The notes beneath the pieces are model-generated. The model searched no databases. It saw only the letters and a program-made list of their open reading frames with translations, and was not told the DNA's origin. Below are positions 22,984 through 41,070 of a stretch of DNA of 64,000 nt, piece after piece (the stretch's first letter is position 1; each line of letters begins with the position of its first letter). Source of the stretch: Candidatus Micrarchaeota archaeon (GTDB lineage: Archaea > Micrarchaeota > Micrarchaeia > Micrarchaeales > CABMGC01); the NCBI GenBank assembly GCA_021809925.1, contig JAJZJV010000002.1, positions 7,666 to 71,665 of the forward strand, in the 5' to 3' direction. Both the position numbers and the translations under genes were made by a program.

Positions 22984-24489
22984 TCATGTTATGAAGGTGA
23001 ATATCCTGGTGATTAGTATATCTGAAATACCTATGCTTCTCAGAAACTCCAGTATGAGATCCTTGTTGACATTATCCCTTATCAGTGCCTGAACCAAAAG
23101 CCGGATATCAACAAGGCCGCTCTTTGCGTCCATCTCCTTAAATACCTTCTCAATTATTCCTGAGCCAAGGTTTATTTCTACCAATTTGGAGTTCATCTCC
23201 ATCTTGCTAAACGTGTATTCCTTTTGTATAGCCGTGTTGTTCAGCTCGTCCTGATTGAGTATCTCTGCAACAGTTATTGTATACATATCCAAAGGTATCT
23301 CTCCTACAACCTTGTCAAGTATGAAAATATCTGGGAATTGAACGCTGGTGTGGAAAGACATGTCTATTGCTGCTTGTCCGACCCCGAACTTGCTTATCTC
23401 TGACCTTATAAACTGCGAGAAGTTAAGCGATCCTTGAAGGTAATTCATGAACTTTTCAAACCTGACCCTAAGCATTATTGTAGTTCCGACATTTGAGAAG
23501 ATCGCTTCGTTTATATCAGTAGGGTTTTGCGATGCTACTATTAGCCCAAACTGGTATTTTCTTCCTTCCCTTACAATCATTACCGCGTCGCTTCTATCAT
23601 CCCCTGCAATCTTCCACGCCTCGTCAAGCACTATTATAGCTTTGAGCCCTTTGGATGCACTCCAACCCTCGGCCCTCATCTTTTCCTTTAAGGTTTGCAA
23701 TATGAACAATGCTGCCATGGCCCTAAACTGTTCATCAGGAAGACCTGAAAGATCTATTGATACAAGGCCAGATGTGGAAAGCTTTCCCAGATCTATTGTG
23801 CTCTTCTTAGCAAAGAAGTCTTCGCCCTCCCTTGAGAATTGCCTTAGCCTATAAATTGCATTTTCTAGCTCTGCTGGATATTGATAGGTGTTTTCCTCAA
23901 GCTTTTCTTCCAGCAACGCAACGACATCTTTTATTGTGGGTGCATCTTTCTTAGGGTCAGGAGGGTTGGCAATGTCGAATCCGGCATTAAGATAGGATTG
24001 CTCTATAGCTTCTGCAGTTAATCTGCGCTGCTCTGGATAATTTGAGATGTCAGTCAATATGTCAAATGAATTCATGATCTGCTTCGTTCTGTCAAGAGGC
24101 TTCATTCCCGAAAGATCCATTATATTTATGAAATCTCCCTTCGCGAGTGATACAACTGTGCCTCCGCTCTGCCTCACCCATGCCTTATACTCACCAGCCC
24201 AATCAATTATTATGGCGTTTGTGTTCCAGATATAGCTTGCGCGTATCAGGAAGGTCTTAATCAGGAAGGACTTTCCAGCACCAGTTATCCCAACTATCGC
24301 AAGATGTGGATTTGTCAGAGATGCAAAAGTCCAAGTGAACGGAACCTTGAATAGTTTTGTTATGCCTATGAATATAGAATCTGTAGGATCGTTTAGCAGG
24401 AACTCGAAAGGAGGCTCTGGGGGCCTGCTGAAGAATGCTCTTTTTGCGAGCTCATTACTCATAACATTTTGGATCCTAAGAAGTGTCAT
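22984..24489 (-). CDS. P-loop ATPase of the VirB4/TrbE/CedB (AAA_10/DUF87-like) type, short form (501 aa)
   Basis: Walker A is NPHLAIVGITGAGKSF and is followed by NAIIIDWAGEY. Walker B is KAIIVLDEAWKI and is followed by REGRKYQFGLIVASQNPTDI. It lacks the long N-terminal domain of the ~800-aa bacterial VirB4. Confidence 0.75.
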   Translation of the reverse strand: MTLLRIQNVMSNELAKRAFFSRPPEPPFEFLLNDPTDSIFIGITKLFKVPFTWTFASLTNPHLAIVGITGAGKSFLIKTFLIRASYIWNTNAIIIDWAGEYKAWVRQSGGTVVSLAKGDFINIMDLSGMKPLDRTKQIMNSFDILTDISNYPEQRRLTAEAIEQSYLNAGFDIANPPDPKKDAPTIKDVVALLEEKLEENTYQYPAELENAIYRLRQFSREGEDFFAKKSTIDLGKLSTSGLVSIDLSGLPDEQFRAMAALFILQTLKEKMRAEGWSASKGLKAIIVLDEAWKIAGDDRSDAVMIVREGRKYQFGLIVASQNPTDINEAIFSNVGTTIMLRVRFEKFMNYLQGSLNFSQFIRSEISKFGVGQAAIDMSFHTSVQFPDIFILDKVVGEIPLDMYTITVAEILNQDELNNTAIQKEYTFSKMEMNSKLVEINLGSGIIEKVFKEMDAKSGLVDIRLLVQALIRDNVNKDLILEFLRSIGISDILITRIFTFIT

Positions 24490-24525
24490 ACTCTCATATA
24501 TCTTATTAGATATTACATATTAATA

Positions 24526-25350
24526 TTATTTCTGTGTCTGGAATATTTTGCTTAACTCTTTCTTTCCTAGCAGCGCATAATTAAATTTATACATATAGTA
24601 AAGCTCCCTCCCAACTATACGCATTATATTGAGGTCAAATGAATTGAAGACTGTCTGGAGTTCGTTTATTTGGTTCTCCATTGAGTCTACAGCTTCCTTC
24701 TCGCTTACGCCTACTGCTGTAGTTTCTATGTACATAAGGCTGTTAACTGGGCGCTCCCCTGCAGATATTCTCTCAATCCTTGTCTGAACTATGCTTATCC
24801 TCCTTTGAAGATCTTCAATTGTCATCTGGTTTGCATTCTGGCTCTTCATCTCTTTTGAGAGCTGGAATTCCAGGAAACCTCTCTGTCCCTCAAGATCGCT
24901 CCTGTAGCTCTGTATGTCCTGCGCCGCAGTTATCACATTGAACCTGAATGGAAAGTCTATGCTCATCAATAGTCTTTCCCATTTCTCAGACGAAGATGCG
25001 AGATTCGCTTCTTCGTTTGCTTCAGGATTTTCTGCGGCAAATATATAGTTGTAGATGTTGGCTGTGAGGTAACCAGTGGCATAATATAGCCCGTTTGTGT
25101 ATTTAATCACAGACTTTTGGTCCTTAGGTATTATGAAGTTCCTGCCAGGAATTATTGTGATCCTTAGCACCGAGGTAAAAAGGGGAAATAGTATGAAGTC
25201 TGCATAGTTTATTGCGAGGTTTATTATTATCGTTAGTATAGCTAGTATTATAACTATTATAGAGAATTCTCCATAGCTGGAAGCAGTGGTCACAAGTGCC
25301 AATGCGAGTAAGGCAGTCACACCCAAGTATACCACATCTTCTATGTCCAT
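24526..25350 (-). CDS. 2-TM anchor plus soluble alpha/beta domain protein (274 aa), paralog A. Candidate VirB3/VirB4-N-terminal-like.
   Basis: Two N-terminal hydrophobic helices, then ...VIKYTNGLYYATGYLTANIY.., a helical segment and ..LMYIETTAVGVSEKEAVDSMENQINELQTVF. It has the same architecture and length as the next gene. Confidence 0.55.
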   Translation of the reverse strand: MDIEDVVYLGVTALLALALVTTASSYGEFSIIVIILAILTIIINLAINYADFILFPLFTSVLRITIIPGRNFIIPKDQKSVIKYTNGLYYATGYLTANIYNYIFAAENPEANEEANLASSSEKWERLLMSIDFPFRFNVITAAQDIQSYRSDLEGQRGFLEFQLSKEMKSQNANQMTIEDLQRRISIVQTRIERISAGERPVNSLMYIETTAVGVSEKEAVDSMENQINELQTVFNSFDLNIMRIVGRELYYMYKFNYALLGKKELSKIFQTQK

Positions 25351-25354
25351 AGTA

Positions 25355-26182
25355 TCACATCCCTTCAGTTCTTGTCTTCATCCTCTCACTTATCGTGCTA
25401 AGTGGTATCCTTGCATCTGGCTCAACGAATAATGCAAGCTCTTCGCCTTTGATTAAGTATGCGGTCACGCCCAATATCGAGCTTATTCCTGAAGCCAACT
25501 CCTCTGCTTGCTGATTAGATAAGCTTACTGCTTCCTCCTCGTTTCCACCAATAGCTGTCACCATTCCAAATGAGACGAGCGTCTGTGACTTGGTCTCGCT
25601 GATGCTGTCGGAAAGGTTCCGCCACATTGTGACCTCGCCTTTTGCTCGGTCCAGTGCTGTTGGATTCTCTACTCTTTTCGCTAGCGCATCGTTATATCTT
25701 CCCTCTGCTTCGTTGAGCTTGGTCTTAATTTTATTAATGTACTCATCTTTGTTTACCATGTACATCTGAGTAGCTATCTTTATAGGAGTCTTTGATAGAG
25801 TTAGTACACGGCCAAAAAGCCTTGAGAAATCTAGCTTCTCCTGGTCGTTCATCTCTGTAGACGATCTGTAGATTGGAATCTTTACAAATGTACTTGCGTA
25901 AACGTCGTCTTCGCTCCTTGTTATTATGGAGGTTCCTGAAGATGCCATTGTAAAAGGATCATCGTTATCCAGTACTATTGCGCCCCCCTTCATCCTGAAT
26001 AATGGACCTAGGAGATATAGGTAATATCTTGTCGAAAATGCCAAGATGTCTATCATAAGTATGATTATCGCAATTATGAACTTAATCGCTGTGCTGATCT
26101 GGAGAGTGCTAGTTATAAGGATGAGAAAGGCGGCAACGCCTACCAAGATTATGAAGATTATGCTTCTAAAGTTGAATGCCAA
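25355..26182 (-). CDS. 2-TM anchor plus soluble alpha/beta domain protein (275 aa), paralog B
   Basis: Two N-terminal helices, then ..IITRSEDDVYASTFVKIPIY.., a helical segment and ..LVSFGMVTAIGGNEEEAVSLSNQQAEELASGI. It is collinear with paralog A. Confidence 0.55.
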   Translation of the reverse strand: MAFNFRSIIFIILVGVAAFLILITSTLQISTAIKFIIAIIILMIDILAFSTRYYLYLLGPLFRMKGGAIVLDNDDPFTMASSGTSIITRSEDDVYASTFVKIPIYRSSTEMNDQEKLDFSRLFGRVLTLSKTPIKIATQMYMVNKDEYINKIKTKLNEAEGRYNDALAKRVENPTALDRAKGEVTMWRNLSDSISETKSQTLVSFGMVTAIGGNEEEAVSLSNQQAEELASGISSILGVTAYLIKGEELALFVEPDARIPLSTISERMKTRTEGM

Positions 26183-26223
26183 GCAAAACGCCCTCTCTTA
26201 CAGATACTGCATTTATAAACTAT

Positions 26224-27330
26224 TTATATGTTTGCTGTCAGCCTTCTTGAGGTCTGTGCCATCCCTCCTATCAGATTTGATATTGTTAGTATAGAAAAGT
26301 ATGTTATTGCAAGGTTCAATGCCGGGAAGAAGAGCACCGATATCCAGAAAGAGCTCATCGCTGTTTTGACATCTGCTATTTGAGTCACTAGAGGGGAGCT
26401 TGGTGAGACAGTCCCTGGGGGGAAGTTGCAGACCAAGCTACCCGTTGTTGGATTCTGTGAGCAATCGCTAAACTTGTTAAGGTTAACTGCAGCATTGTTA
26501 AGGCTCGTTATTGAGCTCTGGCTCGTAAAGTAAAAAGAGATAGAAAAGAGCATTGGCATTATTAGGTAGAACCCTATAGCAACTGCAACCATCATCCCAC
26601 CCATGCTTCTTGTCGGCAATAACGCACGAAATATTATTCCAGGTATGAGAAATACAGGTATTGCAGCGTACATCAAGAACAATATCAGATAATATTCTAT
26701 ATAGAGCACCATCAGCCCGTCTATTAGCAGTATTGCTATGGTTACAGAGGGATTGACCAAAAAAAACAATAGAGGATATTGGAGTGGCTTTGGTATATGC
26801 CATTCATGCTGATTTGGAAAATAAATAAGTATGTCAAGTTTCAATGTAGAAACATAATATGCATCGTTCTCTATATAAAAGAGATTTGAGAGTACATTGT
26901 CAGTAGAATTGATAGTCTGGCTGATATAGCTTAGAGAGGTGTTATACGGGTTTATCGGGCCTGTGACAATGCTTGGAAGGATGCCGAACATGGTGGAAGA
27001 GATGTAAAGGAAAAATGTCACTATGAGCGTTGTTGCTATAGCCTCATAGAATTCCCCAATGCCATAAGTTCTTACCCTATCGCTATTGAATATTACCCCA
27101 ACCAGGAATATTAGTGTGGCTATAGTAAATGAGAATAATATTGCAACAACTGCGATAGGAGCCCAGTTGTTCCAACTTTTCACTACTGACTGATTTATCT
27201 GACTGCAATACCACGGTGCCAGGGCGTTGACAGTGCCGGCTGTGCTGCAGTAGCTAAACAAGTCTGCGTGCACATTGTTTAGCAGCATTGTTGTAAAGAG
27301 AATTGCAGCAATAATCATGCTTTTCTTCAT
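26224..27330 (-). CDS. Polytopic membrane protein, member 6 of a six-gene tandem paralog family (VirB6-like topology)
   Basis: Sec-type signal peptide MKKSMIIAAILFTTMLLNNVHA. Topology is TM1-TM2, a large Cys/Asn-rich loop, then 4-5 more TMs. The family motif is degenerate here: FRALLPTRSMGGMMVAVAIGFYLIMP. Confidence 0.65.
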   Translation of the reverse strand: MKKSMIIAAILFTTMLLNNVHADLFSYCSTAGTVNALAPWYCSQINQSVVKSWNNWAPIAVVAILFSFTIATLIFLVGVIFNSDRVRTYGIGEFYEAIATTLIVTFFLYISSTMFGILPSIVTGPINPYNTSLSYISQTINSTDNVLSNLFYIENDAYYVSTLKLDILIYFPNQHEWHIPKPLQYPLLFFLVNPSVTIAILLIDGLMVLYIEYYLILFLMYAAIPVFLIPGIIFRALLPTRSMGGMMVAVAIGFYLIMPMLFSISFYFTSQSSITSLNNAAVNLNKFSDCSQNPTTGSLVCNFPPGTVSPSSPLVTQIADVKTAMSSFWISVLFFPALNLAITYFSILTISNLIGGMAQTSRRLTANI

Positions 27331-27338
27331 TTTTGCAC

Positions 27339-28430
27339 CTAAACCAAAGTTGTTAATATTGATAAGAAATCAAGCCTTTCGCCTATTGCTTGCGAGAAAT
27401 CCAATACGAATGTATCTATTATTACAAAATTAAGTAAGGGTATAAATGTTAGCCCAACACCTATGAACCCAGCATATATTAGAATCCCTTCCTTAAACGA
27501 TTCATATAGTATGATTAGCAGAGCTACAAGAGATGGAGACACTATGTAGGATGTTGCCCAAGAAGGCAAAATGCTTGATATGGTAGAGCTTGCTATTATA
27601 CTAGCATAAGATGCGAAGACTGTTCCTAGGAGTACAGGTATGTTAATGCCGCTGTGTGCTATTCCATAATCAATAACACCATATGTTATTCCTGCTAGAA
27701 TTGGGTATATTATTCCAATTCCGAATGCCAGCGCGATCATCGCTCCACCAAATGTCCTGGTTATCCCAAACGATCGTGATATGAGCCCAATAGCCATAAG
27801 TATTGAGAATATGAGTACGGATGAACTAAGTATGAGGAGTTGCACCTGATTTAGGATTATGGTCAAAAATACAAGTCCATATAAAGGGCCGTAGAATGTT
27901 ACTACTGGATTTAGATTCTCAGGAGACAATGATATAGTATATTGTATGCTTACGCTTCCAGGGTGAATGGAGATAACTCTTTGTGGACTTATGGAGGCCA
28001 ATATTGATACATAGTATACCAGAAGATTAAGTTCCCCAACATTATGGTTGAATTGTTTAAGGTTGCATATGCTTATCACATAGAAGTTATTAACTGCAGG
28101 ATTATCGCAACTTCCAGTGACCATCCCGAAATTTGAGAAGATCTGGTGCGGATCTGCTATTATTATTGAGGTGGAAAATGCGGCAAAGATTAATATTAAA
28201 ACTATTGACAGGAGCAATTCGTATATCTTTATTCGTATCCAGTTGCGTATATCACTTCTTCCCATCAGTGGGCTTAATGCATAGACTATTCCAAAGATTG
28301 AGATTATTGCAATAACCGCAGATATAACCACCGGAAACCAGGAAGTATATGGAGACGTCAGGAAATTGCATATGCTACCGAGAGGACTGATGCCTCCCGT
28401 GCATCCACTTACTAAAAGACTTGGAATCAT
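27339..28430 (-). CDS. Polytopic membrane protein, family member 5
   Basis: Family motif ISRSFGITRTFGGAMIALAFGIGIIYP with the same topology. There is a 1-nt overlap with the upstream gene. Confidence 0.65.
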   Translation of the reverse strand: MIPSLLVSGCTGGISPLGSICNFLTSPYTSWFPVVISAVIAIISIFGIVYALSPLMGRSDIRNWIRIKIYELLLSIVLILIFAAFSTSIIIADPHQIFSNFGMVTGSCDNPAVNNFYVISICNLKQFNHNVGELNLLVYYVSILASISPQRVISIHPGSVSIQYTISLSPENLNPVVTFYGPLYGLVFLTIILNQVQLLILSSSVLIFSILMAIGLISRSFGITRTFGGAMIALAFGIGIIYPILAGITYGVIDYGIAHSGINIPVLLGTVFASYASIIASSTISSILPSWATSYIVSPSLVALLIILYESFKEGILIYAGFIGVGLTFIPLLNFVIIDTFVLDFSQAIGERLDFLSILTTLV

Positions 28431-29644
28431 TATATCAGCTTGTTGAAGAGCGTCTTGCTCTTGAGGGATGGCGACCCTAATATATCTCCTAATTGCTCCA
28501 TCAGATCAAAAGATATTATAAACGCTATTATTATGCCTAACAGTTGCAATCCAATAAAAGTTATGTTATTTACAAACTGGTCAGCGTTGGCACTAAGCGC
28601 ACCGCCGAAATTCAATGGAATAAACGTTTTTATAAGAGTGTAAAGTGCATTCGCCCCAATTTTAGAATTGGTAGTGAAACTTGATAGCAAATTATTAGAA
28701 TTGCATAAGGTCGTTAATGCTGAGCTCGGCGAGGTGCCCGCGCAGAGTATATTGGTGCTTGATTGAAGCGTTGAAGAGAGTGAGATAAACGGATAAAGCA
28801 CTGCAGGAAATATTATATAGAACGAGATAAATAATGCAATCATAGACCCGCCTGCTGCTCTTGTCCATGGAAATGATCTCAGGAGAAGACCAAGATATAG
28901 GAATAAGGGAAATAAGAAGTAAATAAGCAGCAGGAGTATGATAACTGCAAAACTCAGTGTTACTACAAGGGAAAATGAGCTGCTTTCTAGTATTATCATC
29001 TTTTGTATTACGTCTGTTCCTTCTAAAGGCCTGAAGCTGAAGCCAGGATTAATATATGCAGGTAAATAAGATACTCCGCCGCCATTTGCAGTCAGGTCTA
29101 TCTGAATGCTCTGCATAAGCTGGAGCGGCAATATAAATAATGAAAGACCAATAATGTTCTGCAATGAGTTGTCTATCGTGCCATAATAGCCATTGCATAT
29201 GCTTACATACATGGCATTCGTGCTTGTCACGGGGGCGACGTTGTAAGATTGAAGACCAACGGAAGTAATTGATGACAAGAATGTCATTATGGTGTCAGTC
29301 CCACTTATCCCCCCCACTATGAGAATCACTATAAGAAGATTCGCAAAACTCTCCATGTATTCAGACTTTACGAAAGCTTTCAATTTCTCTATACCAAAAG
29401 CCATCCCCACCATATAAATAATTCCTAAGACAGTTAGGACGGTAAGTATGACAAGCATTGTAATGCTGATCATCTCTGAGTAGGTTGAGCCCCTTGACAA
29501 AGAGGTATTAATAAAAGTATTAGAGCTGCTAAAGAGGTTGTTGCATGACGGAAAGAGCGCAGTGCTTATGAAGCCGGCCGCATGGGATAGGTTAGGGATT
29601 AATGCAAGGCATATGAGAAGCACAAGATAAAAATATTTTTTCAT
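28430..29644 (-). CDS. Polytopic membrane protein, family member 4
   Basis: Signal peptide MKKYFYLVLLICLALIPNLSHA. Family motif LLLRSFPWTRAAGGSMIALFISFYIIFP. Confidence 0.65.
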   Translation of the reverse strand: MKKYFYLVLLICLALIPNLSHAAGFISTALFPSCNNLFSSSNTFINTSLSRGSTYSEMISITMLVILTVLTVLGIIYMVGMAFGIEKLKAFVKSEYMESFANLLIVILIVGGISGTDTIMTFLSSITSVGLQSYNVAPVTSTNAMYVSICNGYYGTIDNSLQNIIGLSLFILPLQLMQSIQIDLTANGGGVSYLPAYINPGFSFRPLEGTDVIQKMIILESSSFSLVVTLSFAVIILLLLIYFLFPLFLYLGLLLRSFPWTRAAGGSMIALFISFYIIFPAVLYPFISLSSTLQSSTNILCAGTSPSSALTTLCNSNNLLSSFTTNSKIGANALYTLIKTFIPLNFGGALSANADQFVNNITFIGLQLLGIIIAFIISFDLMEQLGDILGSPSLKSKTLFNKLI

Positions 29645-29648
29645 GTTA

Positions 29649-31127
29649 TCACAATAGCCTGCTTAATCCGAGCAGAGATGTATTACCGCCAAACAATGAG
29701 GACAGACCCATTATTGACGTTATTATTATAAGTAAGTTCAATATTGGAAGTATAAATCCGATTACAGAATCTATTCCATAAACATGTAGTATTGCAAGTA
29801 GCGAGTTTAGGGCTTCTGTGGGGTGACAATTAAAGTAACCATATGGAGGCATTGCTGGAGAGATCCCTCCAAGATGGGATGAGCCGAATGAAGAAATGAC
29901 TGCGAGCACCGCTCCGCCGCCAGTAACTGCGCCAGATAGAGGGAAGGTGTAGTAAGCAACTAATTTCAGCTCTGCTGAGAGGAGTCCTGTTGAGCCGGGA
30001 AGGCCCGATGGCCAGCATCCATTATAATTTATGGCTTCTGCAAGGTTTGGTATTACAAAGAAATTTGGAGTATAATGAGGACAGGTCTTTGGATCCCCGA
30101 TAATGCAGGTATTATCATTGAATGGTTTATAGTACAGGGACATTGAAGGAATTAAACTCGCACCCACAGGTTTGATAGATGGACTTGTAAGGGAGGTATA
30201 TTCAAAAATAAAGAATATTGGATATATTATAACCATTACTATGCTTATGGCCATTAATAAGCCGCCAACCTTTCTTGTCAAGAAAGATGAGTGCAGTATT
30301 ATGCCACCTGCCAAGAGATATGGCCAGATATATATGAACAGAATAATAAACAGGAGAATGAATGAGGAGAGATAAAATAATAAGTATGCCTGTGCTTCTA
30401 TCATCTTCGTGCCTCTCAGCATCATATAATAACCTACAAATGGTTCATAGGTATATACACTCTCAAATGCAAATCCCTCTCTTGGGATTATGCAGCTCAA
30501 TGGCACTAGTGGTTCGCATATGCCTACTCTGGCATCGAGCTCTCGCAGGAATGCCATATAGTTCTCAAATATATAAAGGGAGTTAAGATTTGCAGCAGTT
30601 TGATTAGTTATGTTTGCATTAAGTATGTATGCAGCCGATAATCCATAATCTATATTAGTTGCTATGTGGGGGTTTGGAGAAGCAGCTGCCGCTTGTGCAT
30701 TAGGTATCTCGATGTTGCAGATAGTATTTGTTGGATATCCGCTTAAAATGTCGAGTGGGGAGCCTTTGAAATTATTAATCGAGGATGGTACAAGATAAGT
30801 ATTACATATGTTTGCTAATGAGCTCGGAGGGATTGAATAAAATGTCGATAGAGAGGATGTTCCGAATGTATATAAAATGCCTACAAGTATTACAACGATT
30901 ACTGTCAGGCCTATTATCTGGCCGAATTCAGTTATTGCATTTGCTTTTATCCGCTTATTTCCCAACACTGCGCCGAGTAGGTAGTACATGCTGACCAGAG
31001 AGGCACTTGCCATTATTGCGGCCATTATAACAGGGAGCCAATTCTGGAATTCAGAGTATGGGGTGAATATGCTTTGGGCTAACACCACAGAAGGAATGAA
31101 TGCGGATAGGAGTAGTATGCTTTTCAT
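29649..31127 (-). CDS. Polytopic membrane protein, family member 3 (largest, 492 aa)
   Basis: Signal peptide MKSILLLSAFIPSVVLA. Family motif ILHSSFLTRKVGGLLMAISIVMVIIYP. The extracytoplasmic loop is expanded. Confidence 0.65.
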   Translation of the reverse strand: MKSILLLSAFIPSVVLAQSIFTPYSEFQNWLPVIMAAIMASASLVSMYYLLGAVLGNKRIKANAITEFGQIIGLTVIVVILVGILYTFGTSSLSTFYSIPPSSLANICNTYLVPSSINNFKGSPLDILSGYPTNTICNIEIPNAQAAAASPNPHIATNIDYGLSAAYILNANITNQTAANLNSLYIFENYMAFLRELDARVGICEPLVPLSCIIPREGFAFESVYTYEPFVGYYMMLRGTKMIEAQAYLLFYLSSFILLFIILFIYIWPYLLAGGIILHSSFLTRKVGGLLMAISIVMVIIYPIFFIFEYTSLTSPSIKPVGASLIPSMSLYYKPFNDNTCIIGDPKTCPHYTPNFFVIPNLAEAINYNGCWPSGLPGSTGLLSAELKLVAYYTFPLSGAVTGGGAVLAVISSFGSSHLGGISPAMPPYGYFNCHPTEALNSLLAILHVYGIDSVIGFILPILNLLIIITSIMGLSSLFGGNTSLLGLSRLL

Positions 31128-31132
31128 TTCTA

Positions 31133-32281
31133 TTAACCCCAGAAAGGACCTATCCCCATTATTCTGGATACTGAGCTGAGGCCTCCTGCAAGGCCTTGGA
31201 CAAAACCCAACGTTATTGCAAAGTCCAATCCAAGAAGCACAATTCCCTGGAATAAGTATTCTGCAACGCTGAAACTTGCTTGCTGCATTGCTATTGGCAT
31301 TGTGAATAGAGAAAGTATGCTAAGTGGCGAACTCGCTCCGAAAATGTTGGCGAAGAAGGATATAGAACCGCTATAACCTGTTGTTTGCCAACCCCCGTTG
31401 GTCGAGAACAAGAAACTTGTAGGGAGAGATGTAAGAGTATCTGTCTTAATGTATGTTGAGTAGTATGGATTACATATTGTCGTATTTTGACAATACATCC
31501 AATTTATTATCGCACTGTTCAAGACTATTGTCAATGGAAATACAAAATAGAGGCCTATGCTTATTGCTAAAAGAATGTTTGCTGATTCCCTCAACCTTGG
31601 ACCTGTGAAAGAGAGTGATCTCAGTATTATAGAGATTGGGATCAATACGGCTAATGCTGCTGAAGCGATGAGCGGAAGTAGGATATATATTAAAAGAAGC
31701 ATGCCGAAGGTTGCAGTTACAAGGCTCATCATTGAACCAACATATATGTCTGCGTATGAGTAGAAAAGATTTGGCAGATTAGCAGAGAAAGAAAGTTTGC
31801 TGCCTCGGCTTGACATTGCCGCGAGGTTCTGAATTAAGAAATCCTGGGTAAGAATATCAGTAGCAGTACCTGCCAATAACACATTTATTGTATCTGCAAA
31901 TAATGTTGTTGTTAGTTTCTGACCCTGCACGAAGAGAAGAGAAGAGATATAATTCTCTGAAAATTGTATAGGATCATAGGTCTTGGTTGAGCTGTAGGTT
32001 AATGATGATACAACAGTGCAGGAAAATGTTGAGAAAGTTATCAATAGTATTATTATGAGTATGCTTACTATACCTTCAACTGCCTCGTATCTGACAATTC
32101 CTCTTAATTTTTCCCTGTTTATGAATGGAAGGATACCGCTCAGAGAATAAAGAAGAGATCCAATCATCATCGTTGCCATTACTACGAGAATGCTGATGCT
32201 TATCCAATCATTCCTGTTTATCGTGCCAAAATTGCAGCTTTGCTGAAAAATGTTCGGTGTCAGTAAGGCCAAGAGCATCAT
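31133..32281 (-). CDS. Polytopic membrane protein, family member 2
   Basis: Family motif variant IILRSLSFTGPRLRESANILLAISIGLYFVFP. There is a 4-nt start/stop overlap with the upstream gene. Confidence 0.6.
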   Translation of the reverse strand: MMLLALLTPNIFQQSCNFGTINRNDWISISILVVMATMMIGSLLYSLSGILPFINREKLRGIVRYEAVEGIVSILIIILLITFSTFSCTVVSSLTYSSTKTYDPIQFSENYISSLLFVQGQKLTTTLFADTINVLLAGTATDILTQDFLIQNLAAMSSRGSKLSFSANLPNLFYSYADIYVGSMMSLVTATFGMLLLIYILLPLIASAALAVLIPISIILRSLSFTGPRLRESANILLAISIGLYFVFPLTIVLNSAIINWMYCQNTTICNPYYSTYIKTDTLTSLPTSFLFSTNGGWQTTGYSGSISFFANIFGASSPLSILSLFTMPIAMQQASFSVAEYLFQGIVLLGLDFAITLGFVQGLAGGLSSVSRIMGIGPFWG

Positions 32282-33492
32282 ACCAACCTCAGCTTTGATC
32301 CTAAGCTTGTAACGACACCGGTTGAGCTGCCGAGCATTCTGGCTATTGTATCCATTAGAGGTATTGCTATGGCTAGATCAAGTATAAATAACACAAATTG
32401 GGCTACCAGATTAACCGTATGGTAAACTAGATCATTTATTGTTGGATATATGGAGTAGAGTGCAGATAAGCCAATAACTATTGAGGTGGTTGATATGCCC
32501 ATATTGGTTAAAACAGTTGTATATCCATTCACAACTGAACATAGGATGCCTGAGGTGCATGATGGGGAGGATGGCGTGGTTGGACCATGGAAAGCGGTGT
32601 TGAGTACATTTGTCACAGGGGCATTAAGAATCACGAGAAGAGAGGGATAGATTATTGAGATGCCTATGCCTATTGCGATTAGCACGCCCCCAACGCCTCG
32701 AACGAATGGAAATGATCTTAGTATTAAGCCTATTGGGATTACTAAAAGCAGACCAATTTTCACAATATATGGCAATAGTGCCATCTCGCTCCCTATTATC
32801 ACAGATATTGGAAATAGAACGATTACTATAGTATCAGATAATATTGATTCGTAATTCCTTACAGTAATGCTATATGGTGTAAGCATCTCGTTTGTTAGAC
32901 CAGCCGGTGTGAATGCGACACCAGTTATCAAATATGGTAGTGGAATGCCATCAGGATAAGGAATTGGCGGAGTCGGGTCATAGTATTGTATAGTTAAAGA
33001 AGTTAATGCACCTATGCCGATACTCAACCCACCTACAGCATCGTAAGCGCAGGCTAGGTTGTTGTCGACCCCAGTTAAGTATATCTCGCCAGAATTTACC
33101 AACCCTGCCAAGTTTGATGAATACGAGCTTGAAGGCGTTTGTCCACTTATTATCACAGCCATGCTGCTCATGAATAGCAATATAGAAAATATGCTTGCTA
33201 TCAAGATCATTGTTTTCGCTATCTCGTAGTATTCTCTTTCTATCCATCCCCTAAGCCCAGCGCCGGAAAAGATCTTGCTTATTATGTAGCCTATGGCAAC
33301 TACATCTATTGAGAGAGTTAGTGCTATCAGTGATACAGCTATTGCTTCATTATATACAGATCCAGGTATTGTGATTGTTGTTTTAATAGGTGATCTTAAT
33401 GAGCAAGAAGTAGCAGCAGATACCAGACTTGGCAGTAAGGCGATTAGCACCATAAAAATGCAGGCTTTGTTAAGAGCCATCTCATCATACAA
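32278..33492 (-). CDS. Polytopic membrane protein, family member 1
   Basis: Signal peptide MALNKACIFMVLIALLPSLVSA, so the start may be the Met at 33480. Family motif LILRSFPFVRGVGGVLIAIGIGISIIYP. Confidence 0.65.
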   Translation of the reverse strand: MYDEMALNKACIFMVLIALLPSLVSAATSCSLRSPIKTTITIPGSVYNEAIAVSLIALTLSIDVVAIGYIISKIFSGAGLRGWIEREYYEIAKTMILIASIFSILLFMSSMAVIISGQTPSSSYSSNLAGLVNSGEIYLTGVDNNLACAYDAVGGLSIGIGALTSLTIQYYDPTPPIPYPDGIPLPYLITGVAFTPAGLTNEMLTPYSITVRNYESILSDTIVIVLFPISVIIGSEMALLPYIVKIGLLLVIPIGLILRSFPFVRGVGGVLIAIGIGISIIYPSLLVILNAPVTNVLNTAFHGPTTPSSPSCTSGILCSVVNGYTTVLTNMGISTTSIVIGLSALYSIYPTINDLVYHTVNLVAQFVLFILDLAIAIPLMDTIARMLGSSTGVVTSLGSKLRLV

Positions 33493-33537
33493 TATTGGTA
33501 ATGGAAACTTATAATACTTCTCTTTTCTGGCAGCATA

Positions 33538-34320
33538 TCAATGTCTTAGCAGAGGGAATCTTTTCATATACGCTTCTGCCTGAAGTATCACAAAATAAGG
33601 CATTATCAGCAAAGAAGTTATTATAAGAACAACATATCTTGATAGGAGAGTACCTGTTATGCCTATAGCAAGTACGTCAAGTATCGATATAGATAGGGTA
33701 GATAATAGAAGCCAGCCGACAAAGTATACTGGCTCCCGGTATATTAGCTTTGTGCTGTCCTTTATCGAACGGAAGACTCGCTTATCGTCAACAACTATTG
33801 CGCTTGGAACGTAGAATATGATTAGGAATGCAATAAATCCTACAATGGAAGTTAAAACTCCGCCAAGCGAAGGAAGGTAGTAGCTTGCTATGATATTGGT
33901 AGCTACCACCACCAAAGCATATGCCAGCAGAACCACAAATACCCTTGAGATGTACTTTTCTATATCTCTAAGCACACTTCCAGCTATTTTTGTGTGTGTA
34001 CGCTTAGATTTGACTATTAGACTTATTGCAACGAAAGCAAAACTCAAGAAGAGAAGAGAGAAGAACACTGAGAATATTATAACGGATATGCTTATTGGGT
34101 TCGTGTTAATGAATATGCTTGCGCTTCTTAGGAATATGCCACCAGCAGTCATGTAGGTAGGAAGTGGGGCAAATAAAGGTATCGCCACAGCAATTATGAA
34201 GGGTATAGAAAACAGGAGCACTAGCTTTAAATTCTGAAAGTATGTCTCTAGGGAATCAGTGAGGACATTTCCCATTATTGCACCATTTGATATACTGCGT
34301 CTCAATAAATAAAAAGCCAT
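33538..34320 (-). CDS. Polytopic membrane protein (260 aa), unknown function
   Basis: At least 6 hydrophobic segments. There is a 1-nt spacer to the upstream gene. No motif was recognised. Confidence 0.5.
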   Translation of the reverse strand: MAFYLLRRSISNGAIMGNVLTDSLETYFQNLKLVLLFSIPFIIAVAIPLFAPLPTYMTAGGIFLRSASIFINTNPISISVIIFSVFFSLLFLSFAFVAISLIVKSKRTHTKIAGSVLRDIEKYISRVFVVLLAYALVVVATNIIASYYLPSLGGVLTSIVGFIAFLIIFYVPSAIVVDDKRVFRSIKDSTKLIYREPVYFVGWLLLSTLSISILDVLAIGITGTLLSRYVVLIITSLLIMPYFVILQAEAYMKRFPLLRH

Positions 34321-34321
34321 A

Positions 34322-36223
34322 CTATTGGCTGCTTTTGTTGTAGACAGGATTGCTTACATAATAATAATCATTGTTGTATAAGATTGCAGAAAATGGCCCA
34401 GTTGTGTATGGTCCAACCATGTATTTAATCCTAAGAGGATACGTGTCGCTGCTCTTATTTAAAATTATTTTATTAATATTTATAGTGCATTCTAAAGAGA
34501 CGCATGTGTTGCTTTTGTTTATGATACTCTCATTTATAAACCCGTAAAAACCAAATGTGCTGTTGCTGACCCCAATAGTAGAAACATAAATAGTATTGTT
34601 TGTCAGATTATTGTAACTAATTGTGGCATTGTAGTAAATGTAATTTCCATTTATTGCCAGATCTTGGTTCTTTAGTGATATATTGAAGTTGTGAGTATAT
34701 TGGTTGTGTGATCTGATTATAATTGCAGTTGACGCTAGGATAATAAATAACATAGTAATAGCCAAAGCAGGCGTTGCATATCTTCCGATTCTCTCTTTTA
34801 CTATCCCAGGTCCTTTGTTTACGTTCTTTGAGTATAAGGCAAAGACAAAGAAGAAGGAGAACATGCTAAAGTAGGAGATTAGTGCGTGAGATAGAAGTAA
34901 GAAAGGAACCATGCTAAATAGAGGTATTAGCTCTTTCTTATTTATATAAATTAAGAGTATTGCTAAGGCAATTATAGACAAATAGAAGAGTTTTGAGAAT
35001 ACAAGCATGGTGATATGGTAACTGGTCAGTAACGAGAATCCAAGGATTGCTGCGCCGCTTGGCATAATTAATGAACTTACCGGAGCGAATACAGAACTCC
35101 AGTATATTCCCGGATTTATTATTATAACATAGGAGTTTATCAGGAAGAAGACTGCCAAGGCCCCAAGTATATTAAACGCTCCTCTCTTTAATCCCTGATT
35201 ATTAATCATGTATATTATAAAGAATATCACGGGAATCCATAATTCCTCTTGTATCGCGAGTGCTATGCCTAGAAGGATAAATGCATATTTTTTGTCCAGC
35301 TTTGAGTAGGTGATAAGCAAAAGCGTGAGCATTATATATACGGGCAAGGATGCTACAAACGCTATTGAAATTATAAAAAATAATATTAGTGAATATCTGG
35401 GGGAGAGATTCTTCTCATCATGCAGAAGGATTGTTGCTGTAATTATAAGCAGGAATAAGAATATTGCAGCTTCGAGACTCATGTCAATATGGGAAAGGTT
35501 GTGAAGAGTCATGCTAGAGATTAGATAAAATGGCGCTGAGATCAAAGGATACAGCGCAGGATATTCCAGAGAACCCATTATTTTATTGTTTGTTGTGATT
35601 GTCACTCCTATAGTACTGACATTGCCTAGTAGAAAATTTGAGAAGGAAAGGGCATATGGATTAGTGCTATTCAGCAAGGACTTTATGCTTAAGAAGGATA
35701 TCACGGTCTCGTCGTCTACAGAGTACCTTGTAAAGACATGGCCAGATAAGAAATAGAATAGCAATATAACCAATATTAATGCATAAAGAATTAAGGCAAT
35801 TTTGTAGCTTCTTTTGTGAAGGAAATACGCAGCAAATGTAGCAATGAAAAGCAATGGGAGCAATATAACTAGATATGTGCCTATGTTCTCTAAGAGATAA
35901 AGTAGGGTTTGTATAAGACCGGAAGAAATGCTGTTGCCTAGAACATATAGGTAATATATGAAAAGTAGGATTAATATAAGGAATAAGATATTTAGTATAA
36001 GCTTGGTTGCTTTCTTACTTATGCTTCTTCCTTTTGTGTTCCCTTGTTTATTATCACGTAATGAGATAAGAGATGCAACTAAGTAGATCAATGAAATGGA
36101 TATGTATAGCGAGGCTACAAACCTTGCAATTGGCACTAGGAATAGTGAATAATAAGATAAAGCAATTGTGATGAGGAAGAAGAATAATATTATAAATATT
36201 TGAGATTTAGAATTAAGTCGCAT
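34322..36223 (-). CDS. Large polytopic membrane protein with a sequon-rich C-terminal ectodomain. Possible GT-C-fold glycosyltransferase.
   Basis: About 480 aa of TM helices including LEYPALYPLISAPFY. A ~120-aa tail follows with many N-x-S/T sequons (NISL, NATI, NLTN, NNTI, NSTF, NESI, NKSN, NKSS). The GT-C call is weak and pattern-level only. Confidence 0.45.
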   Translation of the reverse strand: MRLNSKSQIFIILFFFLITIALSYYSLFLVPIARFVASLYISISLIYLVASLISLRDNKQGNTKGRSISKKATKLILNILFLILILLFIYYLYVLGNSISSGLIQTLLYLLENIGTYLVILLPLLFIATFAAYFLHKRSYKIALILYALILVILLFYFLSGHVFTRYSVDDETVISFLSIKSLLNSTNPYALSFSNFLLGNVSTIGVTITTNNKIMGSLEYPALYPLISAPFYLISSMTLHNLSHIDMSLEAAIFLFLLIITATILLHDEKNLSPRYSLILFFIISIAFVASLPVYIMLTLLLITYSKLDKKYAFILLGIALAIQEELWIPVIFFIIYMINNQGLKRGAFNILGALAVFFLINSYVIIINPGIYWSSVFAPVSSLIMPSGAAILGFSLLTSYHITMLVFSKLFYLSIIALAILLIYINKKELIPLFSMVPFLLLSHALISYFSMFSFFFVFALYSKNVNKGPGIVKERIGRYATPALAITMLFIILASTAIIIRSHNQYTHNFNISLKNQDLAINGNYIYYNATISYNNLTNNTIYVSTIGVSNSTFGFYGFINESIINKSNTCVSLECTININKIILNKSSDTYPLRIKYMVGPYTTGPFSAILYNNDYYYVSNPVYNKSSQ

Positions 36224-36257
36224 GCTTATTACTACTCAACAAAATTTAAGTAGAATA

Positions 36258-36280
36258 TAAAAGAAAAAAAAGAAAAAAAG
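36258..36280 (-). terminator. Oligo-T transcription terminator downstream of the pilin-like gene
   Basis: The minus strand reads TTTTTTTCTTTTTTTTCTTTT. It begins 17 nt after the TGA at 36297-36299. Runs of at least 5 T are the known archaeal termination signal. Confidence 0.6.
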
Positions 36281-36296
36281 AATATCTCAGTGCTAA

Positions 36297-36671
36297 TCAG
36301 CAACCTGAGATACTGCTTATTGAGCTTCCGAAGCCGGCAACCGTTGTTACGATCCATGGTGCTGCCAATACGAGTATTAACCCTATTATGCCACCCATAA
36401 TCATACCAAGAGACCATCCTTGTAGACCGCTTCTCAAATTACCTGCAGCAGGCAGGAAGTGAGCCGCAGCATAAAGAACGCCGCCTACTACGAACAATAC
36501 TAGCGCGAATATGCCTACGACAGTTCTTACAGTATTTACTATATTACATAGATTGCTAGTGAGAAGATTTACTGAACTCTGTGCAGACAGTGACAGGCCT
36601 AGTAAATTCGCTACTACGCCACCTATGAAGACTAGATATATTGCTAGTCTTATTTTTTTGCTTATCTCCAT
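36297..36671 (-). CDS. VirB2/TrbC-like pilin candidate (124-aa precursor)
   Basis: Signal peptide is MEISKKIRLAIYLVFIGGVVANLLGLSLSA. It is followed by QSSVNLLTSNLCNIVNTVRTVVGIFALVLFVVGGVLYAAA (helix 1). Next come the short loop HFLPAAGNLRSGLQGWS and LGMIMGGIIGLILVLAAPWIVTTVAGF (helix 2), with a Ser-rich C-terminus ending in Cys. This is the two-helix hairpin layout of VirB2-type pilins. Confidence 0.55.
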   Translation of the reverse strand: MEISKKIRLAIYLVFIGGVVANLLGLSLSAQSSVNLLTSNLCNIVNTVRTVVGIFALVLFVVGGVLYAAAHFLPAAGNLRSGLQGWSLGMIMGGIIGLILVLAAPWIVTTVAGFGSSISSISGC

Positions 36672-36680
36672 CTAAATCAA

Positions 36681-36743
36681 CTTATATGTGTAAATCTTAT
36701 GAAAAAGTAACCTTAAATAACTTGGGTTTTGGGGGTTTAAATA
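36681..36743 (-). promoter_or_regulatory. Promoter region of the pilin-like gene with several TATA-like boxes
   Basis: The minus strand contains TATTTAAACC (36733-36743), TTATTTAAGG (36711-36720) and ATAAGATTTA (36691-36700), upstream of the ATG at 36671. The 92-nt spacer is the largest inside the cluster. Confidence 0.3.
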
Positions 36744-36763
36744 CTTTGTTGTGCGCAGTATGG

Positions 36764-38950: not shown

Positions 38951-38976
38951 TGTGGAAGTGTTCTGTGAAGTTGTTA

Positions 38977-39669
38977 TTAGTCATTCTTCATACGTAATCT
39001 TAATCTTAATGCTGCATTTATGAAATAGATCACATCTGAGATATGAACGTTGCTTTGTGGCTGCTCATCCCAAGAAATTGGAAACTCTCTAACTTTAATA
39101 CCGTCTCTCTGAGCCATTATTATTAGCTCTGTGTCAAAAAACCAATGGTCATCTTTTACCTTTTTTATATATGTTTTTATAAATCTTGAGGACCAGAACT
39201 TGAAGCCGCACTGATGGTCTTTAACTTTAGATTGAAAGAGAAGTGCAATTAACCAGTTGTATGATAAGCTAGCAAATAATCTCAGAATACTCCTATTAGC
39301 ATCTGATCCTTTAATATAACGTGATCCTGTTACAAAAACCTCCCCATTATCAACCAAGGTAACGGCTTTGTTAAGATATCTTGCAGGAACTGCCATGTCA
39401 ATATCCAAGCATCCTATGATGTTGCCTTTAGCAAGCGTTATGGCTTCTTTTATTGCTTTCCCTTTCCCAAGCCTATGATTTGATGTCATTAACCGTACGT
39501 GAAGCATCTTGGACTTTTCCCTGCAGATAGTGGGGGAATTGTCTGTGGAGCCATCCTCTGCTAGTATTATCTCGAAATTGCCGAGTTTTTTGGTTTCTTT
39601 GTAAATAAGATCGAAATTCTTCTTAAGGTTGCCTTCTTCATTATGTATTGGAAGGATTAAAGAAAGCAT
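38977..39669 (-). CDS. GT2-family glycosyltransferase (dolichyl-phosphate sugar synthase-like)
   Basis: LSLILPIHNEEGNL, EIILAEDGSTDNS and LDIDMA (DxD) motifs. The ATG at 39669 is preferred over the GTG at 39687. Confidence 0.85.
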   Translation of the reverse strand: MLSLILPIHNEEGNLKKNFDLIYKETKKLGNFEIILAEDGSTDNSPTICREKSKMLHVRLMTSNHRLGKGKAIKEAITLAKGNIIGCLDIDMAVPARYLNKAVTLVDNGEVFVTGSRYIKGSDANRSILRLFASLSYNWLIALLFQSKVKDHQCGFKFWSSRFIKTYIKKVKDDHWFFDTELIIMAQRDGIKVREFPISWDEQPQSNVHISDVIYFINAALRLRLRMKND

Positions 39670-39691
39670 AGTACCATCAACATGCACTGAA

Positions 39692-40600
39692 TCATTTAAC
39701 TGAGGCGATTATACCATCGATTATGCCGTTAACGCCTATGCCGCCTGTAGACCTTACGGCTATCCTGTGGCTGAGAACAGGCCTTGCAAGGAACTTTATA
39801 TCATCGATGCTCACTTCCTTTCTGTCTTCTATCAGTGCTTTGGCTTTGGCTGCCTGCATGAAAGATATGTCGGCCCTTGGGCTTGCACCCATTGTTGTAT
39901 GGATCTCTTTTCGCGTTGCTCCGACTATCTTTGTTATGTATTGTACAACATTGTCAGGCATAACAATGCCTTTGGCTGCCTGCTGCATTGATAGGATATC
40001 GTTTGTAGAGATGACCTTCTTGGCCTCAACGTTCTCCTCGCGTTCCTTTATCCTCAGCATCTCTTGCTCCTCTTCCATGCTTGGATAATCCACATCTATC
40101 TTCAAGAGAAATCTGTCACTAAGCACCTTTGGCAGTGGCTCTGTCCCTTCTATCTTCAGGGGATTCTGTGTTGCAAATGCTGTAAAAGGAGATGGAAGCC
40201 TGATATCCTCTCCGCCAACAGTGACCTGGCGCTCCTCAAGCGTCTCAAGCAAACCACTCATCGTCTTCGGGGAAGACCTGTTGAGCTCATCTATCAATAG
40301 GATATTTGTAAAGATCGGGCCTTTGTTGAATTTGAGATTTCCGGAAGGATCTTCAGAGACATATCCGACAATATCCTTTGTTTGCAGATCGGATGTTCCT
40401 TGGATTCTCTTGAAGTCTCCCTGTATAGTCTCTGCGAGGGTCTTTGTCATTGTTGTCTTAGCGACCCCAGGAACCCCTTCGAGCAAGGCATGCCCATTTG
40501 CCACCATGGTTATGAAAAGAAGCTCTATGGTGTCTTTTTTGCCAGCTATGTGCTTCTTGACTTCTTCGGAAACTGCGAGATAAGCCTGATGCGCATCCAA
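39692..40600 (-). CDS. MoxR-family AAA+ ATPase
   Basis: HALLEGVPGVAKTTMTKTLA (Walker A), ILLIDELNRSSPKTMSGLLETLEERQVTV (Walker B/sensor), FATQNP. It is 302 aa. Confidence 0.9.
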   Translation of the reverse strand: MDAHQAYLAVSEEVKKHIAGKKDTIELLFITMVANGHALLEGVPGVAKTTMTKTLAETIQGDFKRIQGTSDLQTKDIVGYVSEDPSGNLKFNKGPIFTNILLIDELNRSSPKTMSGLLETLEERQVTVGGEDIRLPSPFTAFATQNPLKIEGTEPLPKVLSDRFLLKIDVDYPSMEEEQEMLRIKEREENVEAKKVISTNDILSMQQAAKGIVMPDNVVQYITKIVGATRKEIHTTMGASPRADISFMQAAKAKALIEDRKEVSIDDIKFLARPVLSHRIAVRSTGGIGVNGIIDGIIASVK

Positions 40601-41048: not shown

Positions 41049-41070
41049 ATGTTTAAGCAGTGGAGGAATT

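Follow-up and report, generated by a model that had tools for sequence, protein, structure and literature searches.

The archaeal Ced and Ted DNA-import systems of Thermoproteota are domesticated chromosomal machines built from a minimal set of parts: a pilin, one or more polytopic proteins with a pilin-like N terminus, and a VirB4-like ATPase (PMC9905601). In Patescibacteria (the candidate phyla radiation, CPR), VirB2-like pilin arrays are reported, and the chromosomal type IV secretion system (T4SS) with these arrays is essential for epibiotic growth (PMC12102498). Nanohaloarchaea encode giant proteins of the SPEARE type that include a VirB4/TraG-like ATPase domain (PMC10266531). DPANN archaea attach to hosts and take up material from them, and no dedicated apparatus for doing so has been defined in Micrarchaeota. 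The subject here is a gene for a 124-residue pilin-like protein on the minus strand of a 64,000-nucleotide stretch of a Candidatus Micrarchaeota archaeon genome (contig JAJZJV010000002.1, positions 7,666 to 71,665; the window). The gene is the first of a core chromosomal operon whose last gene encodes a VirB4/CedB/HerA-class ATPase, and the operon is a concrete, testable candidate for such an apparatus. With modest confidence, the gene is assigned to the main subunit, probably the major pilin, of a diverged and chromosomally fixed Micrarchaeota machine related to the T4SS, Ced, and Ted systems. If this assignment is correct, domesticated conjugation-type machines in archaea reach beyond the Thermoproteota, and the operon would parallel the chromosomal T4SS that Patescibacteria need for life as epibionts. 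A literature search, which did not cover all journals, found nothing linking Micrarchaeota to VirB2-like pilins.

Probable relationship of the family to TrbC/VirB2 pilins

The gene occupies this position in the window:

36297..36671, minus strand: coding sequence of the 124-residue pilin-like protein, ATG start, TGA stop (36297-36299)

The open reading frame (ORF) is kept in 57 genome loci, collected by a scan with one genome per species. When 1.84 billion cluster representatives were searched with a profile built from the 16 closest sequences, at least 346 proteins were returned at an expect value (E) ≤ 1e-3, 169 of them at E ≤ 1e-10. The ORF is therefore not a chance one. An earlier interpretation made from the letters of the DNA alone (the sequence-only reading) had proposed a VirB2/TrbC-like two-helix pilin candidate, and the translation it gave is the actual one, with the leader MEISKKIRLAIYLVFIGGVVANLLGLSLSA followed by QSS, the loop HFLPAAGNLRSGLQGWS, and the C terminus SSISSISGC. 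The nearest homologs are 96-97% identical and come from acid-mine-drainage metagenome bins, and nearly all of the 57 loci are labeled Candidatus Micrarchaeota or Micrarchaeia. Three contigs (L001, L055, and L022) are labeled Candidatus Marsarchaeota or Saccharimonadales, yet bear the Micrarchaeota-type locus. These labels are probably binning or labeling errors in public genome bins because the same archaeal housekeeping neighbors flank the locus. By its homologs, then, the window belongs to the chromosome of a Micrarchaeota (DPANN) archaeon.

The window protein matches two Pfam families only, TrbC/VirB2 (PF04956; 17.3 bits against a curated cut-off of 27.9, E = 5.5e-3, profile positions 14-97 of 98) and T4SS_pilin (PF18895; 18.8 bits against a cut-off of 26.6, E = 1.7e-3, profile positions 10-70 of 71). 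The same two families stand out among the 115 short members of the family. TrbC is matched by 38 of them (best E = 1.3e-7, about 32-33 bits by our own calculation) and T4SS_pilin by 33 (best E = 1.3e-5; the best score seen directly is 23.9 bits), and no other Pfam family is matched by more than six. One relative, P0146, does exceed the curated TrbC cut-off, with 29.0 bits; over 73 residues it shares 41% identity with the window protein (E = 4e-17). The controls were 197 other membrane proteins encoded in the same loci, consisting of 114 members of the six-paralog family, 46 of the 260-residue family, and 37 of the 633-residue family described below, and none of them matched TrbC or T4SS_pilin.

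The reverse search ran the family hidden Markov model (HMM), unfiltered, against 3,041 locus ORFs and eight genuine plasmid VirB2/TrbC proteins (3,049 sequences in total). The Sphingobium and Rhizorhabdus plasmid VirB2/TrbC proteins (E = 0.009 and 0.016) came 12th and 13th of the roughly 2,970 sequences outside the family, outranked only by the operon's own paralogs. The layout of the protein is also of the TrbC type, with a leader whose cleavage site was placed by inspection, two hydrophobic helices, and a short loop with a basic residue. The family is likely to be a remote branch of the TrbC/VirB2 superfamily, and the window protein would belong to it by transitive homology rather than by its own score. 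What had been proposed as a VirB2/TrbC-like pilin candidate thus stands as a remote homolog, supported by the family matches, P0146, the clean controls, and the partner ATPase. Translated searches of 72,556 plasmids with the pilin (tblastn, E ≤ 10) gave no match, and NCBIfam contained no model that matched it.

An alternative treats the TrbC matches as noise from hydrophobic composition and the protein as a small one with two helices from some unrelated family, for example a holin, a small transporter subunit, or a type IV pilin. The weak E values of the window protein itself and scattered weak matches to DctQ, Yip1, and Cyt_bd_oxida_II are on the side of this explanation. The composition-matched controls, which gave zero pilin matches, argue against it, as do the family counts of at most six of 115 for any alternative against 38 and 33 for the pilin families. 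A holin or other phage protein was rejected: ten family members compared with PHROGs matched no annotated phage family, holins included, and the locus has no phage context. A type IV (class III) pilin was rejected as well, since there is no Pfam match of that class and no class III leader, two transmembrane helices follow the leader, and the partner ATPase is of the DUF87 class and not of the PilB/VirB11 type. A defense system was also rejected, because PADLOC has no match for the pilin and only the ATPase is HerA-like. An unrelated protein is considered very improbable.

Protein architecture, conserved residues, and domain fusions

A hydrophobicity scan of the 124-residue protein finds three segments (residues 6-31, 41-77, and 83-118). 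The AlphaFold2 model, built from 16 sequences with a predicted local distance difference test score (pLDDT) of 77, has helices at residues 3-72 and 77-113 separated by a turn at 73-76. The two-helix hairpin after a Sec-type leader described in the sequence-only reading is borne out by both analyses. The parts of the protein map to the window as follows:

36582..36671, minus strand: predicted Sec-type signal peptide, residues 1-30, with cleavage at LSA↓QSS predicted and judged by inspection
36546..36548, minus strand: Cys42, just outside helix 1, invariant in alignment A1
36456..36542, minus strand: helix 1, about residues 44-72, predicted to run from outside to inside (AlphaFold2, hydrophobicity, and the TrbC/T4SS_pilin profile match)
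36414..36455, minus strand: inter-helix loop, residues 73-86 (LPAAGNLRSGLQGW), with R80 and W86 (conservation in 178 domains)
36333..36413, minus strand: Gly-rich helix 2, residues 87-113 (AlphaFold2), which aligns with helix 2 of plasmid VirB2/TrbC
36300..36332, minus strand: predicted extracellular tail of variable sequence, residues 114-124, whose last residue is the conserved Cys124 (codon 36300-36302)

The putative signal peptide has a basic n-region (KKIR) ahead of the hydrophobic core at residues 6-31, and an A/G-then-Q junction at the end of the leader is conserved among homologs. Agrobacterium VirB2, whose sequence was recovered from plasmid records, has its leader site at AAA↓QS. The predicted LSA↓QSS junction is of the same A↓Q type as this site and that of TedC, which is reported as AVA↓QA and is of the signal-peptidase-I type (PMC9905601).

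Conservation is concentrated in the core of the hairpin; the N-terminal part of the mature protein and the C-terminal tail differ among homologs. Of the 178 family domains, 177 have a basic residue (Arg or Lys) at position 80, 175 have Tyr or Trp at position 86, and 168 keep P74. In 155 of the 178 domains, one Cys stands just before helix 1 and another follows helix 2 by 5-30 residues, and every unit of the tandem fusions retains the pair. Cys124 is nearly invariant and holds its position even where further domains come after it. It had been suggested earlier that the terminal Cys and the Ser-rich tail could be processing or modification sites; the Cys is conserved and the Ser-rich tail is not. 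The leader, the extracellular-type fusions at either end, and the head-to-tail joining of units all fit a hairpin whose two ends face outward and whose loop faces inward. In that topology the two Cys residues would be neighbors on the outer side, where a Cys42-Cys124 disulfide may clasp the ends of the hairpin. Such a clasp may stand in for pilin cyclization and would be a new feature of the pilin module.

The range of architectures was surveyed in 165 proteins, the best 150 of the family search plus 15 close homologs. About 120 are stand-alone hairpins of 100-200 residues, about 30 carry a large N-terminal extracellular-type domain ahead of the hairpin, nine have a C-terminal extension after it, and four are tandem fusions of 2-7 hairpin units. 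Such variants are seen among P0016, P0017, P0018, and P0127 and at locus L068: tandem fusions have up to seven units in one 1,071-residue protein, and other pilin-domain proteins have Cys-rich or Ig/PKD-like N-terminal domains. Two to three pilin genes stand in tandem in 13 of the 57 loci. At one locus (L068:9283-17375) six pilin-domain genes replace the single pilin gene directly before the gene of the 260-residue family, and the products include a 632-residue protein made up of four hairpin units as well as three proteins whose N-terminal domains are Cys-rich. The arrangement looks like a major subunit accompanied by adhesin-bearing minor subunits, and it is also reminiscent of the VirB2-like arrays in Patescibacteria. 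To our knowledge, adhesin-fused and tandem pilin-domain proteins are new for VirB2-type pilins.

The fusions raise the possibility that the Cys-clasped hairpin is a generic anchor for surface or S-layer-associated proteins, with the 124-residue form serving as a spacer or competitor and having no link to secretion or pili. This would account for the roughly 30 of 165 proteins with large N-terminal extracellular domains, the nine with C-terminal ones, and the four fusion genes in a row in L068. Against an anchor stand the roughly 120 stand-alone hairpins, the sequence similarity to TrbC/VirB2, the strict synteny of the pilin gene with the ATPase operon, and a highly conserved loop for which a passive anchor has no need. 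A generic anchor is judged improbable.

Transcription signals, operon, and partner ATPase

The pilin gene lies within a minus-strand gene run at 22984-40600. The sequence-only reading had pointed to a long spacer upstream of the gene, and at 92 nt the spacer towards the neighboring 728-residue gene is indeed the longest in the cluster. The second longest, 73 nt, is directly downstream of the pilin gene, and the remaining spacers range from -4 to 45 nt. The two spacers contain the following signals, listed with a comparison promoter's gene:

36736..36743, minus strand: distal TATA box P1, TATTTAAA preceded by ACAAAG, which fits the phylum-wide consensus
36712..36723, minus strand: predicted proximal BRE/TATA promoter P2, AAGTTATTTAAG, a 12-mer identical to that of the 5S rRNA promoter
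36676..36681, minus strand: Shine-Dalgarno-like GTTGAT, 5-10 nt before the ATG, read from the sequence with a putative function
36259..36279, minus strand: putative oligo-T terminator T7-C-T8-C-T4, beginning 17 nt after the stop codon
43845-43956, minus strand: 5S rRNA gene, source of the comparison promoter

A consensus archaeal promoter consisting of a TFB-recognition element (BRE) and TATA box, GAAAG-N-TATTTAAA, lies 5' of the pilin genes in most loci across the phylum. It is usually about 40 nt before the start codon and is often followed by a GGTG-type ribosome-binding site; GGTG or GTTGA motifs occupy the equivalent position in many homologous loci. Of the several TATA-like boxes noted earlier upstream of the gene, two are true motif matches, at 36743-36736 and 36723-36712. 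The first is one of three TATTTAAA sites in the window and is kept in L001 and L002. The second, AAGTTATTTAAG, recurs 24 nt 5' of the 5' end of the 5S rRNA at 43991-43980 on the minus strand; when the pattern is relaxed, the window contains only four matches to it. AAGTTATTTAAG is probably a strong-promoter consensus of this organism. By analogy with the spacing of the 5S rRNA promoter, the pilin transcript would start near 36689 and have a leader of about 18 nt.

The claim that the oligo-T tract is unique to the pilin gene was confirmed for intergenic sequence: within the cluster, T7-C-T8-C-T4 is the sole place between genes where at least six T occur in a row, and the four other such runs on this strand are intragenic. 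The 60 nt after the stop codon were compared between 70 pilin genes and the other operon genes. A perfect hairpin of at least 6 bp is present at 39-45% of pilin genes versus 0-6% of the other genes, a hairpin followed by a T-rich tail at 24-29% versus 0-3%, and a run of five or more T or a hairpin at 69-73% versus 6-56%. GC-rich perfect hairpins that resemble bacterial intrinsic terminators, often with a T-tract, follow the pilin stop codon in L007, L009, L011, L013, L024, L027, L029, L035, L038, L043, L044, and L046. The hairpins after the pilin genes could be archaeal terminators or elements that stabilize mRNA 3' ends. A scan with bacterial sigma-70 and intrinsic-terminator models is not meaningful for an archaeon. 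Beyond the T-tract of the window, a TATA-like TTTTATAT lies about 30 nt before the ATG of the next gene, which encodes a 633-residue protein. The promoter, the terminator enrichment, and TTTTATAT beyond the T-tract support separate and strong transcription of the pilin gene as predicted from these signals. The stand-alone, strongly expressed unit originally envisaged is accordingly backed at the level of predicted signals by the conserved BRE/TATA element, the 12-mer shared with the 5S rRNA gene, and the enrichment of terminators.

The genes 3' of the pilin gene encode a 633-residue protein, a 260-residue protein, six polytopic proteins, two proteins of about 275 residues, and a 501-residue ATPase:

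34322..36223, minus strand: 633-residue polytopic membrane protein, next downstream of the pilin gene, syntenic in 41 of 57 loci
33538..34320, minus strand: 260-residue polytopic protein, the best-conserved membrane component (51 of 57 loci, 52-64% identity)
26224..33492, minus strand: six paralogous polytopic proteins (404, 382, 492, 404, 363, and 368 residues), syntenic in 33-37 of 57 loci
24526..26182, minus strand: two proteins of about 275 residues, each with a soluble domain after a hydrophobic segment at the N terminus
22984..24489, minus strand: 501-residue DUF87/AAA_10/P-loop_TraG ATPase (Pfam), last gene of the operon

The operon is present in nearly all of the 57 loci, and its order is conserved in 33-51 of them, a count bounded by the 10-kb flanks that were fetched. 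MoxR, Rpb4/RpoF, ribosomal-protein, and other housekeeping genes lie upstream of the operon in 26-32 loci, and the locus is therefore a fixed chromosomal site; a mobile element was ruled out on this basis. In the window, MoxR is separated from the pilin gene by genes for a family-2 glycosyltransferase (GT2) and for a 728-residue polytopic protein that matches nothing in Pfam (36764-39687, minus strand). This arrangement is found in only two of the 57 loci, which marks the pair as a lineage-specific insertion; it might serve to glycosylate surface proteins. Farther upstream, an Rpb4/RpoF-like ORF (40710-41048, plus strand) overlaps the start of the next ORF (40996-41655, plus strand) by 53 nt. 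The true start of the latter is probably further downstream because its homologs align from about residue 20-39.

The six paralogs share 17-26% mutual identity, and their N-terminal hairpin is pilin-like. Alignment of the pilin family with this hairpin by hhalign gives 58% probability (E = 9.7e-5), and the pilin HMM (HMMER) matches the family of the 382-residue paralog with E values from 1e-5 to 4e-3. The pilin and this paralog family have a common motif, GG-x-h-Y-A-x-[SA]-x-h-L-P followed by a basic residue. At the sequence level the N-terminal hairpin of the paralogs thus appears homologous to the pilin. The 260-residue family served as a control and is not pilin-like (hhalign, 0.1% probability with the pilin family). 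A pilin-like relation to a polytopic partner is described for both CedA1/CedA and VirB2/VirB6 (Beltran et al., PMC9905601). The six paralogs resemble VirB6 and CedA by architecture, an analogy in which homology to VirB6 or CedA is undetected. The AlphaFold2 model of the 368-residue paralog (pLDDT 87.7) contains six helices of 34-53 residues. Foldseek found nothing significant for this model in the PDB, and the R388 VirB5/VirB6 stalk (TrwI/VirB6) ranked 17th with E = 0.94. Orthologs of the paralog family in L066 carry PKD-domain insertions, which suggest exposed loops.

The other membrane proteins have few recognizable relatives. The 260-residue protein has weak GPDPase_memb and DUF4013 matches. 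The 633-residue protein has no Pfam match, and the searches yielded just one weak hit for it, to a model of oligosaccharide repeat-unit polymerases (E = 9e-4). It has about 11 transmembrane segments and nearly invariant D171-E172, N188-P-Y190, and Y221-P222 in a non-hydrophobic inter-membrane stretch; these residues recall GT-C glycosyltransferases, a reading that no family search backs. Genes of the same size as the two for proteins of about 275 residues lie directly before the ATPase gene in L066 and L067 as well.

The best NCBIfam match of the ATPase is CedB (E = 2.2e-18, 66 bits against a cut-off of 700). It is followed by CedD, VirB4-like, TraC, and then HerA models, all far below their curated cut-offs. 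The CedB, VirB4-like, and TraC models align over residues 36-370, and matches among PDB sequences include HerA and the VirB4 C-terminal domain 4ag5. ATPase identity across Micrarchaeota is 70-76%, compared with 30-45% for its membrane partners. In the two genomes that could be followed beyond these flanks, the ATPase is in the same gene array as the pilin; the distance is 12.4 kb in L066, where the ATPase gene is downstream of the L012 pilin and shares its strand.

A hairpin that stays in the membrane is the principal alternative to a pilus subunit. The protein would then be a small stoichiometric component of an ATPase-driven complex, such as a translocon or a channel ring, in an ancestral form that makes no pilus. 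CedA1 was long viewed as an integral membrane protein, and Beltran et al. derive pilins from genuine membrane proteins (PMC9905601). The same hairpin is built into the six polytopic paralogs, the tandem fusions with 8-14 transmembrane helices would be hard to polymerize, and the pilus assignment is itself drawn from sequence. Four observations point the other way. The gene's own strong-looking promoter and terminator and the tandem arrays fit a subunit needed in large excess, the termini vary around a conserved core, and the adhesin-domain fusions indicate a surface-displayed structure. In addition, every characterized TrbC/VirB2-family protein with a VirB4-class partner is known to form pili. 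A membrane-resident subunit is considered rather unlikely.

Several results weigh against the assignment of the protein to a pilus of the T4SS type. The window protein misses the curated cut-offs of both pilin families. The hhalign comparison with eight alphaproteobacterial VirB2/TrbC proteins aligns helix 2 only, in register, with 17-23% probability, and because the reference alignment of eight plasmid proteins is narrow this result is too weak to stand alone. The resemblance between the segment after the leader and the region preceding helix 1 of Agrobacterium VirB2, proposed by eye in the sequence-only reading, finds no support in this alignment. Searches of PDB sequences with the protein and with profiles A1 and A2 (E ≤ 10) gave zero matches, including to CedA1, TedC, VirB2, and TraA. 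Foldseek comparison of the pilin model with the PDB returned generic helical hairpins with E > 1 and no pilin; this search is uninformative because a two-helix hairpin holds little fold information. The basic loop is what the positive-inside rule predicts for the cytoplasmic side of any two-helix membrane protein. None of the membrane proteins of the operon matches VirB6, TrbL, or CedA in Pfam, NCBIfam, PDB sequence, or fold searches. Pfam scans of the cluster and its flanks found no coupling protein or relaxase and left several operon proteins unmatched, and the sole match to a coupling-protein domain is the sub-threshold TrwB_AAD_bind on the operon ATPase (E = 0.0072, 15.7 versus 20.5 bits). 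The PADLOC HerA models score the ATPase as well as CedB does and it is inseparable from HerA-type helicases, so its class is given as VirB4/CedB/HerA and no finer. With only about 55 residues before the Walker A motif, the ATPase has neither the HAS domain of HerA nor the N-terminal domain of VirB4, and the absence of the latter also counts on this side.

Proposed assembly and comparison with known systems

In the proposed mechanism for a pilin, the precursor would be inserted through Sec and its leader removed by signal peptidase I at LSA↓Q, leaving a membrane hairpin with both ends outside and the loop inside. An extracellular Cys42-Cys124 disulfide would tie the two ends together as the topological counterpart of the head-to-tail cyclization of the T-pilin and RP4 TrbC. 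A platform of the six paralogs, which begin with a pilin-like hairpin as VirB6 and CedA do, would act with the ATPase to extract subunits together with membrane lipid, and the extracted subunits and lipid would polymerize into a hollow filament. The invariant basic residue R80 and the aromatic W86 may line its lumen. In other genomes, the fused and tandem pilin-domain proteins would decorate or cap the filament with adhesin domains. Such a filament would make contact with the host cell and might also bring in DNA or other material.

A broader scenario extends this mechanism to the biology of the phylum. In it, a domesticated, highly diverged, phylum-wide descendant of conjugation machinery builds a tube from the parasitic Micrarchaeota to their Thermoplasmatales hosts for the uptake of DNA, lipids, or metabolites, with the disulfide-clasped pilin, the adhesin-fused and tandem 'polypilin' variants, and the six VirB6-like paralogs as its parts. 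The machine would then be an archaeal equivalent of the T4SS on which epibiotic Patescibacteria depend. This scenario is tentative and is regarded as rather unlikely.

The pilin and its operon can be compared with four groups of described systems. The first is the TrbC/VirB2 family, represented by the Agrobacterium T-pilin and RP4 TrbC. As in those pilins, a long predicted Sec-type leader that ends at an Ala↓Gln-type junction precedes two hydrophobic helices in the Micrarchaeota protein, and the short loop between the helices has a basic residue. The partner ATPase is of the broad VirB4/CedB/HerA class. Its Gly-rich helix 2 aligns in register with helix 2 of VirB2, and members of its family reach the Pfam cut-off. 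In contrast to TrbC/VirB2, the Micrarchaeota gene is archaeal, chromosomal, and phylum-wide rather than plasmid-borne, the mature protein is longer (about 94 residues), and the Cys pair at the outer ends suggests a disulfide in place of peptide cyclization. No VirB1, VirB3, VirB5, VirB6, VirB8-VirB11, coupling protein, or relaxase was detected near the gene.

The second group is the Patescibacteria arrays. They are likewise chromosomal, belong to ultra-small host-dependent organisms, contain tandem pilin arrays, and have no relaxase, and the T4SS_pilin family is matched by the Micrarchaeota proteins over nearly its full length at sub-threshold scores. The Micrarchaeota system differs in being archaeal, in having no VirB6, PrgI, or TrsD homologs that were found, and in scores below the curated cut-off. 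The third group, the SPEARE proteins, also belongs to a DPANN lineage and links T4SS-type ATPases to surface adhesion proteins that are proposed to act on the host. In that case no pilin is described, and the architecture is entirely different, with one giant fusion where Micrarchaeota have an operon of separate small and mid-sized membrane proteins.

The Ced and Ted systems are the fourth group. Both share with the Micrarchaeota operon a domesticated chromosomal set of a pilin, polytopic protein(s) with a pilin-like N terminus, and an ATPase, which is VirB4-like in Ced and Ted and of the VirB4/CedB/HerA class in Micrarchaeota. Both lack a coupling protein and a relaxase as well. TedC and the Micrarchaeota pilin each have a signal-peptidase-I-type leader that ends in A↓Q, and CedB is the best NCBIfam match of the Micrarchaeota ATPase. 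The differences are that the Micrarchaeota pilin has no detectable sequence similarity to CedA1 or TedC, that six large paralogous membrane proteins stand in place of one CedA or TedA, and that the ATPase is shorter (501 residues) and far below the CedB threshold (66 versus 700 bits). The systems occur in DPANN versus Thermoproteota, and no HerA, Rad50, or ParA genes are linked to the Micrarchaeota operon. Because no sequence similarity to CedA1 or TedC is found, the operon is not a member of the Ced/Ted group in the strict sense, and because no VirB6, coupling protein, or relaxase is found, it is not a canonical T4SS. The pilin is closest to the pilins of the TrbC/VirB2 superfamily, and the system as a whole is closest to Ted and the Patescibacteria T4SS.

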